Source: a virus
Lineage: Duplodnaviria > Caudoviricetes
Length of the DNA: 64,000 nt
IMG/VR virus record: IMGVR_UViG_3300027898_000001
Direction: 5' to 3' (one strand)
The notes under the pieces were generated by a model. The model saw only the letters and a list, made by a program, of their open reading frames with translations, searched no databases and had not been told where the DNA came from. Positions 3,076-62,219 of this stretch are shown here, one piece after another. The first letter of the stretch is position 1. Each line of letters begins with the position of its first letter. The position numbers and the translations under genes are program-made.

Positions 3076-3179
3076 TTTGTACTCTCCAAATAACTTCAAT
3101 TGTCTTCAATATTTACAGTATTTATTACTAATAATTTAAACAGCTCATAGTTCTTGAGCATTTTTATAGGAAACTGAGT

Positions 3180-5636: not shown

Positions 5637-5921
5637 TTACCTTTCAACAATTTCTATATCGTATTCTAAATCTGATAATGTTGATAGTGCGACATAAACC
5701 AGATTATTTTGTCTATCACGTATAACTTCTATGCAATCTAAATTTACATTCTTTGAACTATTATTTCCTGGAATTGATTTACGCACAGAAACAATTTCTG
5801 TAACATCTGAACAAACTGCTAAAAAGGCTTGTAGTGAGGTGCTATAAAAATTGTAACTATTTGTTACTACTCCTGTTGTTGGATCCAATGTTGAAGATTG
5901 TGGCATTATGATAGAAGACAT
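5637..5921 (-). CDS. hypothetical protein
   Basis: ORF in operon, 3-6 nt spacing to neighbours. Confidence 0.7.
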   Translation of the reverse strand: MSSIIMPQSSTLDPTTGVVTNSYNFYSTSLQAFLAVCSDVTEIVSVRKSIPGNNSSKNVNLDCIEVIRDRQNNLVYVALSTLSDLEYDIEIVER

Positions 5922-5924
5922 ATC

Positions 5925-6254
5925 TTACTCTACTTTGGCTGTACCGATTATCGTATTTCCATAATCCAACTGCTGGTAGATAGTCAACAATGTTTCTGGA
6001 AAGATGAATGTATCAATACGGTTCAAACAAGATGCGAATGACCCATACTCTTTTAAAATTATCAATGGTTCATCGTCAGACACAATATTTTTGAATTCTT
6101 CGTGTGACATTATGTTTGGAACAAAGCAAATAGTTTCCCGTAAATCTACGGTAATATAACGGTGTCCACTATCTTGTGTGATATGTATTCCAAGCGAAGA
6201 CATTGCAACCATTCGTTTAGCAAAGTCAGATAATTCCGAAGCAGCATGATCCAT
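5925..6254 (-). CDS. hypothetical protein
   Basis: ATG at 6254 after AGGA RBS (track start 6284 is a TTG). Confidence 0.7.
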   Translation of the reverse strand: MDHAASELSDFAKRMVAMSSLGIHITQDSGHRYITVDLRETICFVPNIMSHEEFKNIVSDDEPLIILKEYGSFASCLNRIDTFIFPETLLTIYQQLDYGNTIIGTAKVE

Positions 6255-6271
6255 AATAAGTCCTATTAAAC

Positions 6272-6640
6272 AAAAAGGGCCCAACTAAACCGTCATTCTC
6301 CAAACGTAGTGTGCACACTACAATTTGCGAGCTTCTGATTGAAGTCAGACCCTTGATGAGTTCTATTAGCCTAATAGGCAGAACAATTCTTTTTAGCAAA
6401 GTGCCCTACTTAAAGGGTTTTCGATTAGTTTGATAATGTTTTTCGGGTGTTGTATAACTTCGGATAGATTTATTGTATCCTATAAACAACACCCTAACTA
6501 GAACGAGCATATCTGTAGGCAATATCGGCAATTGTTGAATGTAGTGGACCTTTAATAGAAGGTGCCACAGTGTTACTGAAATATTGGCACAGATACGTCA
6601 CTCTAGTTTGCACTATATAGGCAAGTTCAAGCAACCATTT
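6272..6640 (-). ncRNA. candidate large structured non-coding RNA, family unassigned
   Basis: ORF-free 388-nt gap. 20-bp helix 6608-6589/6516-6496 with three G-U pairs (minus strand only), 9-bp stem 6494-6486/6453-6445, and several further hairpins. Confidence 0.7.
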
Positions 6641-6642
6641 AA

Positions 6643-6936
6643 TCAATTTGAATCCTCCGTACCAATATTCATCTTCCAGTATTCTAAATTTTGTTGTGCC
6701 TCTTCCAAAGTATCGTAGTAGTCAACGACCTTTTCGATATTGTGGTTAATGATTGTAGTGCCACGCAATCCACTTTTGTCGCTATCATACTCGGTAACAT
6801 CATACGTTTGTACAATATTGAAACGCAATTTGTGGAAAGCGGTTGGAATGAGTTTGTATAGCAGTTTGTAACCAATTGTCCGCGAGACTCGAATTGAGTA
6901 TTCTTTGATTCTGTTATTTACATGCTCAACTGCCAC
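6643..6936 (-). CDS. hypothetical protein
   Basis: ORF overlapping the upstream gene end. Confidence 0.65.
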   Translation of the reverse strand: MAVEHVNNRIKEYSIRVSRTIGYKLLYKLIPTAFHKLRFNIVQTYDVTEYDSDKSGLRGTTIINHNIEKVVDYYDTLEEAQQNLEYWKMNIGTEDSN

Positions 6937-7342
6937 GATATTCTCCTAGAATGTTTGAAACATTTTCCACTTTGTGCATAACAAGTACAGGCACACTTAA
7001 ATGATTTGTGTACGATTTCTTCTCGACTCGACCTTCGTTCGGATCATATAACGTAGTGATACCTGTATTATCAACACACATTAAAATATAGTGTGTACCT
7101 GCCATAACATTTAAAGAGGGTACTGTGCAGATATATACTCCACTATATTGTACCAAATGAGGATACAGTATAGGACGACAAATAAATCCATGTTTTGCGA
7201 ACAGCGCCAACATAATGTCTTCTGATATACCTACACCAAATGTAGGAGCTTCTTCTAGCAATATATCAATTGGTACTTTTGTTACCATAGAAATGCAAGC
7301 ATGTCCGCAACTATGGCTACAAACTTGTTGAACGAAATCCAT
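6926..7342 (-). CDS. peptidase C39-like cysteine protease
   Basis: QQVCSHSCGHAC (Q-x5-C), THY and YDP catalytic triad pattern; ATG at 7342 after AAGG. Confidence 0.75.
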   Translation of the reverse strand: MDFVQQVCSHSCGHACISMVTKVPIDILLEEAPTFGVGISEDIMLALFAKHGFICRPILYPHLVQYSGVYICTVPSLNVMAGTHYILMCVDNTGITTLYDPNEGRVEKKSYTNHLSVPVLVMHKVENVSNILGEYRGS

Positions 7343-7483: not shown

Positions 7484-7642
7484 ATGAACCTGCAAGGATT
7501 TAATCTATATCTGTTTGACACAATGGAACAAACAGATTGTGAGTCTACATTACTGCGGCAGGTACACAATAACTTATCTCACGCGCATCCTATATTTACA
7601 CTTTTAAGAAAGAGCAATATTACCATCAACTATATTGTCTAG
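7484..7642 (+). CDS. possible small protein (52 aa, not in ORF track)
   Basis: ATG...TAG filling most of a 260-nt gap, GAG upstream; overlaps the convergent gene by 39 nt. Confidence 0.3.
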   Translation: MNLQGFNLYLFDTMEQTDCESTLLRQVHNNLSHAHPIFTLLRKSNITINYIV

Positions 7643-7957: not shown

Positions 7958-8498
7958 TCTTTCTTGAAAAGATTGATTTTATTTTAGCAACAAACACAGC
8001 ATTGATTCGTATACTTACATACGGTGTTGCCCAAAAGCTGTTATCAGTAAACTTACTGTAAGCATCTTGATAAATATTCCAACCAACATGTAATTCTAAC
8101 AACAATAGTGGAATTTCTTTATACCATATACCGTATTCTTCTTTCTGCGCATCTGTTATTATTGCAAGATAAGTAGGTGCAGGTTTACCTACGTACCATA
8201 GAATACTACCAGTGTTTCTAACACCTAGCCAATACCATGCTGTACAAAACCAACCGAACTTATCGTATATAGAACGTACAAATGGTAAAGTTAAATCACC
8301 GCACATCAATTCGTCTTTAGTTTCTGCCCATGCTAACCAATCAACATACTTAGCACGTTTTATTCCTAGCAAATCGCTAGGTCGTTTATCAGAAATAGTT
8401 TCATTAGATGCAAATGCGATGAAGAATGGTGTAAGAACAATAGCTGGTATTTTCCAAAGAATATCAAGCAATAGAAACAGTGTGATTTTTAAATTCAT
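7950..8498 (-). CDS. hypothetical membrane protein
   Basis: N-terminal hydrophobic helix, Trp-rich; GGAG upstream. Confidence 0.75.
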   Translation of the reverse strand: MNLKITLFLLLDILWKIPAIVLTPFFIAFASNETISDKRPSDLLGIKRAKYVDWLAWAETKDELMCGDLTLPFVRSIYDKFGWFCTAWYWLGVRNTGSILWYVGKPAPTYLAIITDAQKEEYGIWYKEIPLLLLELHVGWNIYQDAYSKFTDNSFWATPYVSIRINAVFVAKIKSIFSRKSA

Positions 8499-9399
8499 TC
8501 CAACCAACTCCTATATGAGATTCACGAATAAAATTGGTACTAGGTAAAATCAATTCAGTGCCATTTTCCAACATATACTGAACACAAAACTTATCTCTAT
8601 GTCCTTTTACTACACTTACAGAAGTGACAAGTACGGGATGTTGTACATTTTGTAATATATACATACGTCCAGGCACAGGTAACTCTCTATCTTCTTCCCT
8701 AGGGATTGGAATAAATGGATTACTGTCTTTGTACATGTTTTCTATAGTTAGTCGAACAATTACAGGAACAGAAATTTCTAAACTTATGTTTATGTTTGTC
8801 CTGGTATAATTAACATAGGTTAATTCGATACTTATACCAGGACCATAATCATTAGGCGATATGGTCAGAACCAACTTATAATCAGAAATAGTTTCTTCTA
8901 ATGAAAATTTCTTTATAATACGATGTGTAATAAAATCCTGCATTCTATTATGAAGATAATGGTTAATACGAGATTTGGCAACACTAATAGTGCAACCTAT
9001 GTTATCCTGCAATCTATAATCGTTTAATTCTGCAATTAATGTAGCTATTGCTATAATCGTACCTACAGAAAAATCTGTTCCAGCAACACTATTACCAAAT
9101 ACTACAGGTGATGTACCGTTGTATGGTGCAATACAATTAACCTGATTCTGCATTAAAATATCTCGATACGCCTGAGTTACTGGACCGCATCGAAATCTTT
9201 GATTCGCCGTATAGGTTGAAAATTGACTAGCTAGAGAATTCTCCATAACACTATCAATATATTTACGCACAACAATTTGGTTTTCTTTGTCACTTGACGT
9301 GTTCACAAAATAGTTTAAAGTAAATGGTGGTATTTTATCATCAACAAAACTATCTGGAAACCACACGTTGTAATTGGTTGGAACTAAAACATATAACAT
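8464..9399 (-). CDS. protein containing a tail-sheath C-terminal-like segment
   Basis: RDILMQNQVNCIAPYNGTSPVVFG aligns with RDALDQAQINCIRFIPGRGYVIWG of the sheath at 60492; ATG at 9399 after GAGG. Confidence 0.55.
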   Translation of the reverse strand: MLYVLVPTNYNVWFPDSFVDDKIPPFTLNYFVNTSSDKENQIVVRKYIDSVMENSLASQFSTYTANQRFRCGPVTQAYRDILMQNQVNCIAPYNGTSPVVFGNSVAGTDFSVGTIIAIATLIAELNDYRLQDNIGCTISVAKSRINHYLHNRMQDFITHRIIKKFSLEETISDYKLVLTISPNDYGPGISIELTYVNYTRTNINISLEISVPVIVRLTIENMYKDSNPFIPIPREEDRELPVPGRMYILQNVQHPVLVTSVSVVKGHRDKFCVQYMLENGTELILPSTNFIRESHIGVGWNEFKNHTVSIA

Positions 9400-9400
9400 G

Positions 9401-9811
9401 TCACAAGACCTCTTTAAATGTGGCGAAGACTGCCTTACCACGAGTCTTATTTGCATTCATACTCACGGCGTTCGTGATGCAAACACCACTGAACACGGAA
9501 CACTTCTGATTATCACGACCATAATCCGCTACAGAATCCCGCAACAGTTTCCAACCGCCACGATTTCTGTATCTTGGTTTAACGTAGGATAATGCTATAT
9601 AAATAGCGTCAGCATTCAATTCATAAAACTGCACAATACCAACAGGCGTATCTTTATGCAACAACAAGTAAGCCATAGTTTCTGTGCGAAATTCTAATCC
9701 GTAATGACGATCAACATAGCCAACTTTTAACAACTCTGCCTGCGCCTCTACAACTAATTGCATGGCACGTAAAGAGTTGGCAGTATTGAGAATTAGTTGG
9801 GTAGTAAACAT
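9401..9811 (-). CDS. GNAT family acetyltransferase
   Basis: SYVKPRYRNRGG acetyl-CoA binding motif A; 136 aa. Confidence 0.75.
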   Translation of the reverse strand: MFTTQLILNTANSLRAMQLVVEAQAELLKVGYVDRHYGLEFRTETMAYLLLHKDTPVGIVQFYELNADAIYIALSYVKPRYRNRGGWKLLRDSVADYGRDNQKCSVFSGVCITNAVSMNANKTRGKAVFATFKEVL

Positions 9812-12455: not shown

Positions 12456-12679
12456 ACTTCCTTAACCTCGATTCTGCGAGCAAGCTCCAATGAATTTCCA
12501 GAACTATCAAATTGCAAGGAAGTTCTGTTATCAGAATATCCTAATACTCTATGTGTTCTAGCGCATACCATCTTATTTACAGCTATGTGATTTGCATTCA
12601 CTATTTCAACTTCTTGTCGAATATCACTGAACGTGCGGCGTCTGCGTCCTTTTAATCTTTCTACAACGTCTGCTTCCAT
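12452..12679 (-). CDS. hypothetical protein
   Basis: ATGA overlap with the next gene. Confidence 0.6.
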   Translation of the reverse strand: MEADVVERLKGRRRRTFSDIRQEVEIVNANHIAVNKMVCARTHRVLGYSDNRTSLQFDSSGNSLELARRIEVKEV

Positions 12680-13741: not shown

Positions 13742-13805
13742 TTTTAAATTCCTGTGAAATTATGTGTGAAAGTGAGTAGTCTTTGCTACATATAGTATTT
13801 ACACT

Positions 13806-25363: not shown

Positions 25364-26953
25364 TTAGTTAGTAGCATTAACAAGACTTTGAGCGAATGTG
25401 ATCTGACCAGTTTTAGGTATGATTGCATTCAAATGGATACGTTTAGCTGGTAGTACAGGGTCAACATACACATCTAATATCAAATCACCATTAGCAATAT
25501 TCTCATTAGAATTGTTGCGATCATCACAAATAATTTCGTAACCGTACAGACCACGGCCACGTTTAATAGGTGCTAGAATACTATCACACAATGCTTTCAT
25601 ACTAATGCGCAAGAAAGTATCGTTAGGTTCATACACACCAACTAGTGAACTGTTTGCGATGCTGGTCTTCAACAAAGAAATCAAGCGACGGACGTTGATG
25701 TTTGATAATGCTGACGCGAACGATTGTAACGTATCAGCGCCCCAAACAACATAACCTTGTCCAGGCATAGAAATCAATGGGTTGATTTGATTGTCTGCAA
25801 ATAAATCACGATGACCTTGTTTGTATGCAACACGAAGACCTTGGACACTCAACTGACTACGTGTAATACCGGCAGGTGCGAACCAAGCAGCGGCTACACG
25901 ATCAGTACGGGCAAACACACCAGCAACATGACCAGAACACGGTATATACAAATTGTTTGCACGATCAGTATCACGTATAAGGATATCTGGAGCATATAAA
26001 GCACCATAAGAAGTGCTTACATTCAAAGTATCTCTACGCCAATTAACAGCGGCTTGTGCATCTTGTTGATCTGAAGGTACGTCTAAGATTGCAAAACAAT
26101 CATCACGTTCCGCAGCAATTTCTAACATACGTTGTTGGACGGTAACATCAGTATAACCGGCATTTATTAACAGGTTAACTGTAAGGTCTTCAACGTCACG
26201 GAACACTTCCCACGCATTAGCAATATCCGAAGTGGTAACCGCAGTTCCGTTATCACCTTGTGTTATACCACCACTTGTCAACGCATTTATTAACACCGCT
26301 TGTTCATTTACTAAGAAACTTGGGTGTTGACGATTAACAAGGACATGAATACGCTTCGACGTTTCTGTCAGATTTTCGATATTCAGTTGCTTACCGAATC
26401 CATCCAATTTATCAAATAGCGTAGCACGATAACTTTCAACTGCAACGGAACTACTACCTTCAAATACGTTCAACACAAAGCCTTGATTGCTTGCGTCGTT
26501 TGTATCAGGATAAATAAGTACACGCAAATTGTTGTTCCAATCGCCCGGATTATCTGCGTAAATCCACATAATATCGTTTGTATCAAAAACAATATCAGCG
26601 GCACTATTAAGTCCTACTGTGAACGGAACAGTTGTGCTGAAATTGTTGACAGTAGCTACTTTAATGCCACCCAATTTAGCGTTGTTTGCAATCCGTACAA
26701 CATACAATTGGCTACTGTCTTCTAAGAATGCAGTGGCACAATAGTGCATGTAAGTGAGTGTGGGATCTGATACACCATATTGTGCGTTCAAATCTGTTTT
26801 ATCTACAACTAAACTCGCTACACCTACGGGACCCTTGTGAGAAGGTCCAACGATAGCACCAATACTGGTCGGAGCTGCTGTAGTTCTTACCGTATCATCG
26901 ACTTCTCCGGTGTACACGCCGGCGCTTGTACTGGAGCCTGAATTTATAGACAT
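25364..26953 (-). CDS. tail sheath protein 1
   Basis: SAGVY...GPVG, WFAPAG, QINP, VWGADT, INVRRL, YEPND, VDPVLPAKRI. Confidence 0.93.
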   Translation of the reverse strand: MSINSGSSTSAGVYTGEVDDTVRTTAAPTSIGAIVGPSHKGPVGVASLVVDKTDLNAQYGVSDPTLTYMHYCATAFLEDSSQLYVVRIANNAKLGGIKVATVNNFSTTVPFTVGLNSAADIVFDTNDIMWIYADNPGDWNNNLRVLIYPDTNDASNQGFVLNVFEGSSSVAVESYRATLFDKLDGFGKQLNIENLTETSKRIHVLVNRQHPSFLVNEQAVLINALTSGGITQGDNGTAVTTSDIANAWEVFRDVEDLTVNLLINAGYTDVTVQQRMLEIAAERDDCFAILDVPSDQQDAQAAVNWRRDTLNVSTSYGALYAPDILIRDTDRANNLYIPCSGHVAGVFARTDRVAAAWFAPAGITRSQLSVQGLRVAYKQGHRDLFADNQINPLISMPGQGYVVWGADTLQSFASALSNINVRRLISLLKTSIANSSLVGVYEPNDTFLRISMKALCDSILAPIKRGRGLYGYEIICDDRNNSNENIANGDLILDVYVDPVLPAKRIHLNAIIPKTGQITFAQSLVNATN

Positions 26954-42624: not shown

Positions 42625-42694
42625 TGGCTCTACGCCAGGGAATCGAACCCTGCTGAGTCGGTTTTAGAGGCCGGTCAGGCTACCTGCGCATAGA
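42625..42694 (-). tRNA. 70-nt amber-suppressor tRNA (anticodon CUA) with tRNA-Pyl-like architecture
   Basis: TCTATGC G CAGG TAG CCTG A CCGGC CTCTAAA ACCGACT CAG CAGGG TTCGATT CCCTG GCGTAGA G CCA: acceptor 7 bp, T arm and CCA intact; anticodon at 42665-42667. Confidence 0.8.
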
Positions 42695-42698
42695 ATAA

Positions 42699-60491: not shown

Positions 60492-62120
60492 TTATTCAGA
60501 GAATTTAGTGCCAGTTGGTTGAATAAACGCAGTCAAGTGGATGCGTTTAACTGCAATTACAGGATCGGCGTACACATCTAGTATCAAGTCACCTGAAGCT
60601 ATAGTATCAGGTAAGTTGTTTCTATCGTCACACACAACATCATACGCATTCAAACCTCGACCTTGTTTAATAGGTTCTAGGAAAGATGAAGTGATACCGC
60701 GAAGCTGTTTGCGCAAGAACTCATCATTAGGATCGAACACACCAAACGCTACAGAAGTAGAAATAGATTTCTTGATATAGTTAAACAAACGGCGCACGTT
60801 CACATGTTGTGTAGCACTTGGTTGTGTTTGTAGAGTAGCTTGTCCCCAAATAACATAACCACGACCTGGAATAAATCTGATACAGTTGATCTGTGCTTGA
60901 TCCAAAGCATCACGGGCACCTTGATTATACTTCTTACGAATATCACGAATTTGTAATTGTCCGCGATTCAAACCAGCTGGTGCAAACCAAAGAGCGCGCT
61001 CTGAATCTGTACGCGCGAAAGCTGCGGAAACAAGACCAGATGGTGGCATCCAAACTTTTTTGTCATTGTCTGTGTCATCAATTTGAACCCAAGGTCCATA
61101 AATACCACCGTAACTATCATTGATGTTTAAATCGTTTCTACGGTAGTTTACTGCATCTGAAACTTCTGCCGCAGCATCAGGCATATCTAAGATAGCGAAG
61201 GCATCAAAACGATTACGAGCAACATCAACCATAACACGTTGTACAACAGGGTTCGCATAACCACCATTAACTAATAGGTTAACGTCGATGTGTTCTGCGT
61301 CATCATATAACTGCCACGCATTAGCTATTTGATCTGTAGTTACAGGCAAACCATCTGTAGCACCTGATAAGAATTGGAATGGTGCTGTGAGTACGGGCAC
61401 GATTTTGCAATAAGGGTTATTACGTACACGAATATATTTAGAACGTGTATTGATAACGTCTTCTACAAACAAGCCACTACCATCAGTATTAACTTCACCA
61501 ACGGTACGTGATACTAAGAATGATTCTACAGGTACGTTATTCGGCCCTGTGTAGTTGTAGAATACGTCAATATAGAAATGGTTTACGTTGTGGTCAGAAC
61601 CTACATTACGACCTTTTGGATTACTTGGACGTATACCAATAGCAATGTTGTTATTCCAAGCACCCGGATTCGCTGCGCAAATGAACATTAAGTCATTGTT
61701 TATATCAGCATCACCTGGATTAAAGCCTAAATTTGTAAACGGATCATCTTTACCTAATGGTACGTTTGAACCATTATCGAAGTTATTTAAAGCCAGTCTT
61801 GGAGTTTGTGCAGTTGGATCATCTACAGTAAGATAAGCACCTGCTGTAAGTGCTCCGTTAACAACACGGGTAATATACATACGGGAACTGACTTTACTGA
61901 ATTGTTTAGCACAAAGCAGCATAAATCCGTACTTACCGGCGTTAGGTTTACCAAATGTGTTATCAAGTTCCGTAGTGTCTGTGATGAGAGTACGTTCACC
62001 TACAGGTCCACGTCCTGCTGCACCAACAAAGGCACCAATCGAAGACGCGACTGAGGCAACACGCTGAGAAAGATCAATTTCGTTGGTGTAAACACCAGCA
62101 CTGGGGAAAACTGTATTCAT
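60492..62120 (-). CDS. tail sheath protein 2
   Basis: FPSAGVY...RGPVG, WFAPAGLNRG, QINCI, IWGQAT, VNVRRL, FDPND; ATG at 62120 after AGGA. Confidence 0.93.
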   Translation of the reverse strand: MNTVFPSAGVYTNEIDLSQRVASVASSIGAFVGAAGRGPVGERTLITDTTELDNTFGKPNAGKYGFMLLCAKQFSKVSSRMYITRVVNGALTAGAYLTVDDPTAQTPRLALNNFDNGSNVPLGKDDPFTNLGFNPGDADINNDLMFICAANPGAWNNNIAIGIRPSNPKGRNVGSDHNVNHFYIDVFYNYTGPNNVPVESFLVSRTVGEVNTDGSGLFVEDVINTRSKYIRVRNNPYCKIVPVLTAPFQFLSGATDGLPVTTDQIANAWQLYDDAEHIDVNLLVNGGYANPVVQRVMVDVARNRFDAFAILDMPDAAAEVSDAVNYRRNDLNINDSYGGIYGPWVQIDDTDNDKKVWMPPSGLVSAAFARTDSERALWFAPAGLNRGQLQIRDIRKKYNQGARDALDQAQINCIRFIPGRGYVIWGQATLQTQPSATQHVNVRRLFNYIKKSISTSVAFGVFDPNDEFLRKQLRGITSSFLEPIKQGRGLNAYDVVCDDRNNLPDTIASGDLILDVYADPVIAVKRIHLTAFIQPTGTKFSE

Positions 62121-62219
62121 AGAAAATGTCCTATTCACGTTTCTGGTTTAGTTGGTATAGAAACACAAAGTTCTAATTCAACACACAGTAAATTAGCGAA
62201 TAGGATGTTGGAATACGTT

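Follow-up and report, generated by a model that had tools for sequence, protein, structure and literature searches.

Three independent hairpins in the intergenic gap ahead of an acyl carrier protein operon of a jumbo myovirus

The 388-nt gap upstream of an acyl carrier protein (ACP) operon in this jumbo phage genome contains three strong and mutually independent RNA hairpins, here named D1, D2 and D3. The reading that we favour, with about an even chance of being right, is that the gap is operon punctuation, a transcribed spacer that carries three independent hairpins between cassettes of one minus-strand operon. The first-pass annotation of the same DNA had proposed one multi-domain noncoding RNA (ncRNA) of about 370 nt. 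That proposal is not supported, because the hairpins are independent, a candidate gene (ORF50) overlaps the 5' third and the 3' hairpin is terminator-like; it is further weakened by the absence of the probable promoter motif from the gap and by related phages, which share neither the sequence nor the strong folding.

The sequence analysed (the window) is a stretch of 64,000 nucleotides, part of a jumbo myovirus genome of approximately 260 kb (ENA contig of 260,131 bp), and nearly all of its genes are on the minus strand. The tail sheath has 46-53% identity to those of the Pseudomonas phages PaBG, NCTB, HRDY3 and Lu11, and there are two sheath paralogues:

25364-26953, minus strand: tail-sheath paralogue
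60492-62138, minus strand: tail-sheath paralogue

The presence of two sheath paralogues is a hallmark of the PaBG/Lu11/NCTB ('Lupandier') group (PMC7412058), and together with the sheath identity it places the phage in or near this group. Sigma-70-type factor genes have been reported in PaBG-group phages (PMC7412058), which suggests that these phages transcribe with the host core RNA polymerase and, consequently, that terminators composed of a hairpin plus a U-run should work in them. The features of the gap and its borders, in the order in which a minus-strand transcript would cross them, are as follows:

6643-6936, minus strand: upstream gene of 97 aa, from the ORF list, codon score +0.29 per codon
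6655-6660, minus strand: Shine-Dalgarno-like GGAGGA, 6 nt before the TTG at 6646
6494-6646, minus strand: ORF50, candidate gene of 50 codons, TTG start and TAG stop
6255-6642: intergenic gap of 388 nt, between the 97-aa gene (upstream) and the 109-aa gene (downstream)
6496-6608, minus strand: D1, a singly bulged helix of 21 bp, extended by 7 bp and capped by a hairpin at 6544-6568
6445-6494, minus strand: D2, a perfect stem of 9 bp with an inner one of 5 bp
6355-6444, minus strand: spacer with weak small hairpins only, helix probabilities 0.5-0.75
6275-6354, minus strand: D3, an 80-nt rod-like hairpin with the closing stem AAGGGUCUGACU/AGUUGGGCCCUU
6268-6276, minus strand: U-tract UUUUUGUUU, whose first two U pair with AA at the D3 foot
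5925-6254, minus strand: 109-aa gene of the SGHRY-motif family, first of the ACP operon, ribosome site AGGA at 6261-6264

The 97-aa upstream protein has no Pfam or PHROG match, and a search among 5.8 billion proteins returned only itself. The 109-aa gene heads a five-gene block, at the end of which lie one clear ACP gene and two ACP-like genes. The gap had been called the largest in the window, which is roughly right at 388 nt, although some 150 nt of this length may belong to a gene.

On the minus strand, the folding energy of the gap (a 391-nt stretch) is -111.7 kcal/mol, compared with -84.9 +/- 5.5 kcal/mol in dinucleotide shuffles (z -4.88), and none of 100 shuffles was as stable as the real sequence. 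Comparison with such shuffles had been named in advance as a test of the structured RNA, and by this measure the gap clearly exceeds its controls. The z score on the plus strand is -2.66. As a background, 80 windows of 390 nt from the same strand gave a mean z of -0.9, with a standard deviation of 1.27 and a minimum of -4.1, and ten pieces of other intergenic gaps in the window ranged from -1.7 to +1.2. The partition function retains D1, D2 and D3 as the only robust structures and finds no robust pairing between domains, so that the supposed multi-domain organisation amounts to three neighbouring stem-loops. Each of the three is more stable than 200 of 200 shuffles, which accounts for three of the four consecutive segments of the gap; the fourth, the spacer (6355-6440), is not significantly structured, with z about -1.3 on the minus and -0.3 on the plus strand. 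Helices of at least 20 pairs, with 1-nt bulges allowed, occur 2-4 times in whole-window shuffles of 64 kb, a number equal to that of the real sequence, and a single long helix is for this reason not decisive. What goes beyond chance is that three strong structures lie clustered in a single gap. Long helices are otherwise few on the gene strand; one of them is a 22-pair hairpin (9453-9503, minus strand, z -2.9) where genes 9401-9811 and 8464-9456 meet or overlap.

The long helix that the first-pass annotation had drawn by hand proved exact: 6608-6589 pairs with 6516-6496 over 20-21 bp with one bulge (duplex -21.4 kcal/mol), and its CAAUAUU/GAUAUUG extension and a capping hairpin are present as well. 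D1 as a whole has pairing probabilities of 0.91-0.96, includes six G-U pairs and is much more exceptional on the minus strand (6494-6612, z -4.92) than on the plus strand (z -2.61). The stem of D2, GGGUGUUGU/ACAACACCC, was likewise recovered (-15.6 kcal/mol, pairing probability 0.98-0.99); its fold is equally stable on both strands (6440-6499, z -4.54 minus and -4.80 plus), and D2 is thus uninformative on strand. For D3, the basal stem has a pairing probability of 0.97 and the inner stems of 0.52-1.0, and the fold of -32 kcal/mol corresponds to z -4.39 on the minus and -2.12 on the plus strand (6270-6355). The robust helices comprise 87 pairs, ten of them G-U, with no 1x1 A-C mismatch on the sense strand. 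The earlier argument from wobble pairs is borne out by these counts: the G-U pairs, the absence of sense-strand A-C mismatches and the difference in z between strands indicate that D1 and D3 are RNA-level structures of the sense strand.

D3 has the appearance of an intrinsic terminator. Its foot, AAGGG...CCCUU, is followed by the U-tract, the proposed 3' end GGGCCCUUUUU being confirmed at 6282-6272, and D3 ends 20 nt upstream of the ATG at 6254 of the ACP operon. A scan of the minus strand of the window for hairpins followed by a T-run gave D3 the top score; its G+C-rich stem and the UUUGUUU after it agree with the pattern of intrinsic terminators, whose U-run starts within 0-2 nt of the stem. 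Intrinsic terminator hairpins are usually compact, with a stem of 5-14 bp and a loop of 3-8 nt; the stem of D3 encloses 54 nt of further interrupted helix, hence is not a compact hairpin, and a consensus terminator scan did not report it. The same layout, AAGG..CCUU and then a U-run, is that of the plain intrinsic terminators of the window (AAGG...CCTT followed by T5-6):

about 4820, minus strand: plain intrinsic terminator, perfect and bidirectional, between convergent genes
about 24780, minus strand: plain intrinsic terminator, adjoining the next gene without a promoter between
about 29616, minus strand: plain intrinsic terminator

Outside this phage, the sequence that a covariance model of D3 matched best was a plain bidirectional terminator of Xanthomonas phage PhiXhv-12. 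D3 shares with known intrinsic terminators the G+C-rich foot followed by a U-run, an A-run that pairs with the first U's and a position between cassettes. It differs in being 80 nt long with three internal loops, and in lying 20 nt before a start codon without a promoter after it; its terminator role is a prediction. Phage operons also use such terminators to attenuate transcription internally, as at T7 T-phi and lambda tR1-type sites. D3 would serve as an intrinsic terminator for the host RNA polymerase, stopping part of the transcripts. No promoter is recognisable for the ACP operon itself, and its expression would depend on read-through past D3, at a lower level.

Candidate promoters are consistent with a transcript that enters the gap from upstream. 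The octamer TGTAAATA occurs eight times in the window, always on the gene strand; four copies are inside genes and four are intergenic:

3110-3117, minus strand: intergenic copy of TGTAAATA
7593-7600, minus strand: intergenic copy of TGTAAATA, ahead of a C39-like peptidase gene
12574-12581, minus strand: intergenic copy of TGTAAATA
13796-13803, minus strand: intergenic copy of TGTAAATA

It is the only 8-mer present in four of the 17 intergenic gaps, and this, together with its invariable placement on the gene strand, means that it is probably a phage promoter element; it resembles the T4 late promoter TATAAATA. The gap at 6255-6642 has no copy of TGTAAATA. The nearest upstream intergenic copy, at 7593-7600, is a candidate promoter for a transcript crossing the gap. 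Sigma-70-like matches are at chance level (five found, 7.2 expected), the sole one near the gap being 6708-6681, and in the corresponding gaps of relatives such matches are at chance level or below. Given the absence of TGTAAATA and the chance level of the sigma-70-like matches, the gap is most simply an internal part of a transcript that starts upstream.

Hairpins processed by RNase III are found between phage cistrons, as in the T7 R0.3-R1.3 sites and lambda sib. With 21 bp plus 7 bp (pairing probability 0.91-0.92), D1 has the length expected of an RNase III substrate, at least about 20 bp of near-continuous double-stranded RNA. It is similar to the T7 and lambda sites in having at least about two turns of near-perfect double-stranded RNA, a small internal loop and a location at a cistron boundary, and it differs in that it may lie within a coding frame and that its cleavage is only predicted. 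Judged by helix length, D1 may be the target of a double-strand-specific, RNase III-type RNase, or else a brake on stability or translation; a cut in D1 would uncouple the fates of the upstream and downstream messages. D2 could possibly be a barrier against 3' exonucleases.

The coding frame in question is ORF50. Its TTG start overlaps the TGA stop of the upstream gene (A-UUG-A) and is preceded by the GGAGGA element at the spacing usual for other ribosome sites in the phage; GGAGG occurs only seven times on the minus strand in 64 kb. The codon log-odds of ORF50, +0.28 bits per codon, fall within the range of the real small genes in the window (0.20-0.84), and are reached by 5-7% of ORFs in shuffled sequence and by 31% of antisense ORFs. 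ORF50 was predicted by the gene caller in one assembly, and no other ORF of the gap has coding character. Protein and family searches found no homologue or family for it; the protein at the same position in the related phage L027 has a weak 6-residue match, GP..AYRYA[RK] (E 0.044). Taking all of this together, the chances that ORF50 is or is not a real gene are about equal. If it is counted as a gene, 239 nt of the gap remain noncoding. The end of ORF50 coincides with the 3' foot of D1, and synonymous re-codings of ORF50 were compared with the real sequence: D1 is more stable than 1000 of 1000 re-codings (z -3.7), while six control genes in the same test gave z of -2.0 to +1.5. D1 is thus exceptional even with the peptide held fixed. 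The overlap of start and stop codons suggests that ORF50 may be translationally coupled to the upstream 97-aa gene. If the punctuation reading is correct, the gap is an example of ordinary phage operon punctuation that aids the annotation of transcription units in a poorly known group of jumbo phages, and it flags a 50-codon gene that was probably missed.

A full HMMER search yielded 12 relatives of the 109-aa protein, a family of 12 representatives with an invariant SGHR[YW] motif, and loci were compared for six of the 12 (P0004-P0007, P0009 and P0016). The two closest relatives are those of L027/L032 (57% identity) and L028 (46%), and both have the same operon, composed of the homologue, a small protein and an ACP. 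L027 and L032, at 99.4% identity, represent one phage, and the three SNPs between their leaders carry no signal. The homologues are located as follows:

L027, 640-990: homologue of the 109-aa protein
L028, 1282-1644: homologue of the 109-aa protein
L032, 5001-5351: homologue of the 109-aa protein

The SGHR[YW] protein therefore heads an ACP-containing operon in three diverged jumbo-phage lineages. A noncoding gap of 223 nt in L027 and 237 nt in L028 precedes the operon, in comparison with the 239 nt left here after ORF50. The genes upstream of the gap are unrelated among the three phages and the downstream operon is conserved; the gap is consequently a cassette boundary, where terminators are expected. 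The gaps of the relatives are not significantly folded (z -0.2 in L027/L032 and -1.8 in L028), and pairwise scores between them and the present gap equal those of shuffled sequences. RNAalifold consensus structures reach only -0.7 and -3.1 kcal/mol, a comparison of low power with three lineages, and the D3 covariance model has no match in the L027/L032 or L028 gaps. Neither shared sequence nor a consensus structure was detectable among these three lineages. L028 has a modest hairpin (z -2.7) with a GGGCCC foot, followed by UUU, about 20 nt before the ATG; the hairpin of L027 equivalent to D3 is not significant (z -0.5) and has no U-tract. There is no gap before the homologue in L029 (a 43% relative), L031 or Xanthomonas phage PhiXhv-12, and L030 has a different gap of 538 nt, in which a small ORF and a TATAAT box occur. 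The closest lineages thus retain a gap the size of a leader but not the strong structures of the present one. A DNA search of 50,697 phage records, and of PaBG, NCTB, HRDY3 and Lu11, gave no homologue of the gap; both flanking proteins are singletons by word search, and scans of IMG/VR gave nothing syntenic.

The gap matches no known RNA family, as had been anticipated: Rfam 15 (4227 models) has zero matches in the whole window at gathering scores. At E values up to 10 over positions 5900-7000, only chance-level matches appear, with 11.7-18.7 bits against thresholds of 48-86. The families without a match include ROOL, GOLLD, tmRNA, RNase P, 6S, SRP, group I/II introns, riboswitches, ribozymes and T-box. 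A group I or II intron splitting one gene was also considered and rejected, since the downstream protein is as long as its homologues and its gene is preceded by a separate ribosome site.

A different interpretation, which we consider unlikely, is that the gap is a cis-regulatory leader of the ACP operon in which D3 acts as a conditional terminator under the control of upstream sequence, a ligand, a protein or the translation of ORF50. A terminator-like hairpin right before a ribosome site is the classic layout of an attenuator, and a noncoding gap of 223-239 nt stands before the same operon in three phages despite unrelated upstream genes. Ribosomes translating ORF50, which ends exactly at the 3' foot of D1, would melt this helix. 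As in leader-peptide attenuators and riboswitch leaders, there is a short ORF with a good ribosome site, structure, and a terminator-like hairpin before the operon. However, no antiterminator competes with D3. The pairings proposed earlier for a pseudoknot or switch, 6438-6428 with 6305-6294 and 6430-6422 with 6292-6283, do exist as short complementary segments, but they are weak (-5.0 and -4.3 kcal/mol) and compete with D3 helices of probability 0.88-1.0. In a search for terminator/antiterminator alternatives of comparable stability none was found, the competitors having -4.3 to -5.0 kcal/mol against -32 kcal/mol for D3. In addition, ORF50 and D3 do not overlap, the ORF being 140 nt further upstream, unlike a leader peptide, no riboswitch, T-box or leader matched even at E up to 10, and the relatives provide neither a conserved aptamer-like core nor a detectable common sequence or consensus structure in their gaps, which are not significantly structured; L029, L031 and PhiXhv-12 have no gap at all. 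If there is a leader for the ACP operon, the evidence favours a plain attenuating terminator; a switch is not indicated, as no competitive alternative pairing was found.

Also unlikely is a discrete and stable ncRNA of a new family, about 230-370 nt long, which would be transcribed from an unrecognised promoter of its own or cut from the operon transcript, for example in D1, with its 3' end at D3. Many sRNA genes are built in this way, with very stable structures on the sense strand (here three) and a terminator-like 3' end; no ORF besides ORF50 shows coding character, and no known family matches. In its size class of a few hundred nucleotides, its phage context and its many helices, the gap resembles ROOL, GOLLD and HEARO; it differs from them in having no Rfam match, no predicted multi-helix junctions or long-range pairs and no homologues found. 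There is no candidate promoter, as TGTAAATA is absent and the sigma-70-like match at 6708-6681 is at chance level. Neither the 50,697 phage records nor the four nearest phages contain a homologue, and a search for paralogous copies found no second copy in the window. The gaps of the relatives are about 150 nt shorter and weakly folded, and no tertiary or long-range organisation is predicted. A type I toxin-antitoxin or hok-like mRNA was dropped from consideration because the gap has no hydrophobic small ORF.

A further proposal, likewise unlikely, is that the spacer or the 239-nt noncoding part is a functional RNA of a new kind linked to the phage ACP operon. It would be either a processed or trans-acting ncRNA released between D1 and D3, or an attenuator responding to a signal. 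In the latter case a signal such as the translation of ORF50, a phage protein or a metabolite would time the expression of the carrier-protein module. The presence of a leader of about 230 nt in each of three diverged phages would then be a case of function outrunning the detectability of sequence and fold. Should this leader prove to be a regulatory RNA, it would open a way to learn at what time, and for what reason, jumbo phages make acyl carrier proteins of their own.

A DNA-level feature, such as the repeats of a recombination or mosaic junction, the remnant of a palindromic element, or a replication or packaging site, is very unlikely. The gap is a cassette boundary with unrelated upstream genes in the relatives, it is about 150 nt longer than theirs, which is about the size of D1 plus ORF50, and D2 is a perfect Watson-Crick palindrome with an equal fold on both strands. 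Against this, D1 and D3 depend on ten G-U pairs, each of which would be an A-C mismatch in the opposite strand. A replication origin was rejected, as no direct repeats or iterons were found and the cumulative GC skew passes straight through the site without a shift. A MITE or host repeat was rejected as well: the pattern of the D1 arms has no true match in 185,579 species genomes, IMG/VR or JGI metagenomes, and four metagenome matches are due to chance, sharing only the 20-21-nt pattern. Least probable of all is a hairpin-rich spacer without selected function, for although long helices arise in shuffled sequence, z -4.1 is reached by some coding windows and no conservation was detected, three of four consecutive segments beat all 200 shuffles where ten other gap pieces do not, every wobble pair favours the transcribed strand and D3 has a well-placed U-tract.

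Two further observations concern a relative and the stop codons. A 13-nt match upstream of the ACP genes of HRDY3 was attributed to chance. The apparent 'gap' of 271 nt at that place (L020 1403-1672, PQ015379.1 299902-300171) shows no RNA structure (z +0.6) and appears to be coding sequence that was left unannotated, with small ORFs for two peptides, one short and hydrophobic, the other zinc-ribbon-like with CxxC...CxxC. An alternative genetic code or a long hidden ORF in the present gap was rejected, since mixed stops occur in all three frames and phage genes stop at TAA, TGA and TAG. TAG is the stop of six of the 68 genes in the window, and also of ORF50. The window includes a tRNA-like gene (42625-42695, minus strand) that ARAGORN identifies as tRNA-Phe with the anticodon AAA and that scores far below threshold with the Rfam tRNA models (best tRNA-Sec, 17.9 bits). 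Its T-arm and encoded CCA are canonical and its D-arm is tiny; in an alternative reading, the loop can be taken as CUCUAAA, which would give the anticodon CUA of an amber suppressor.
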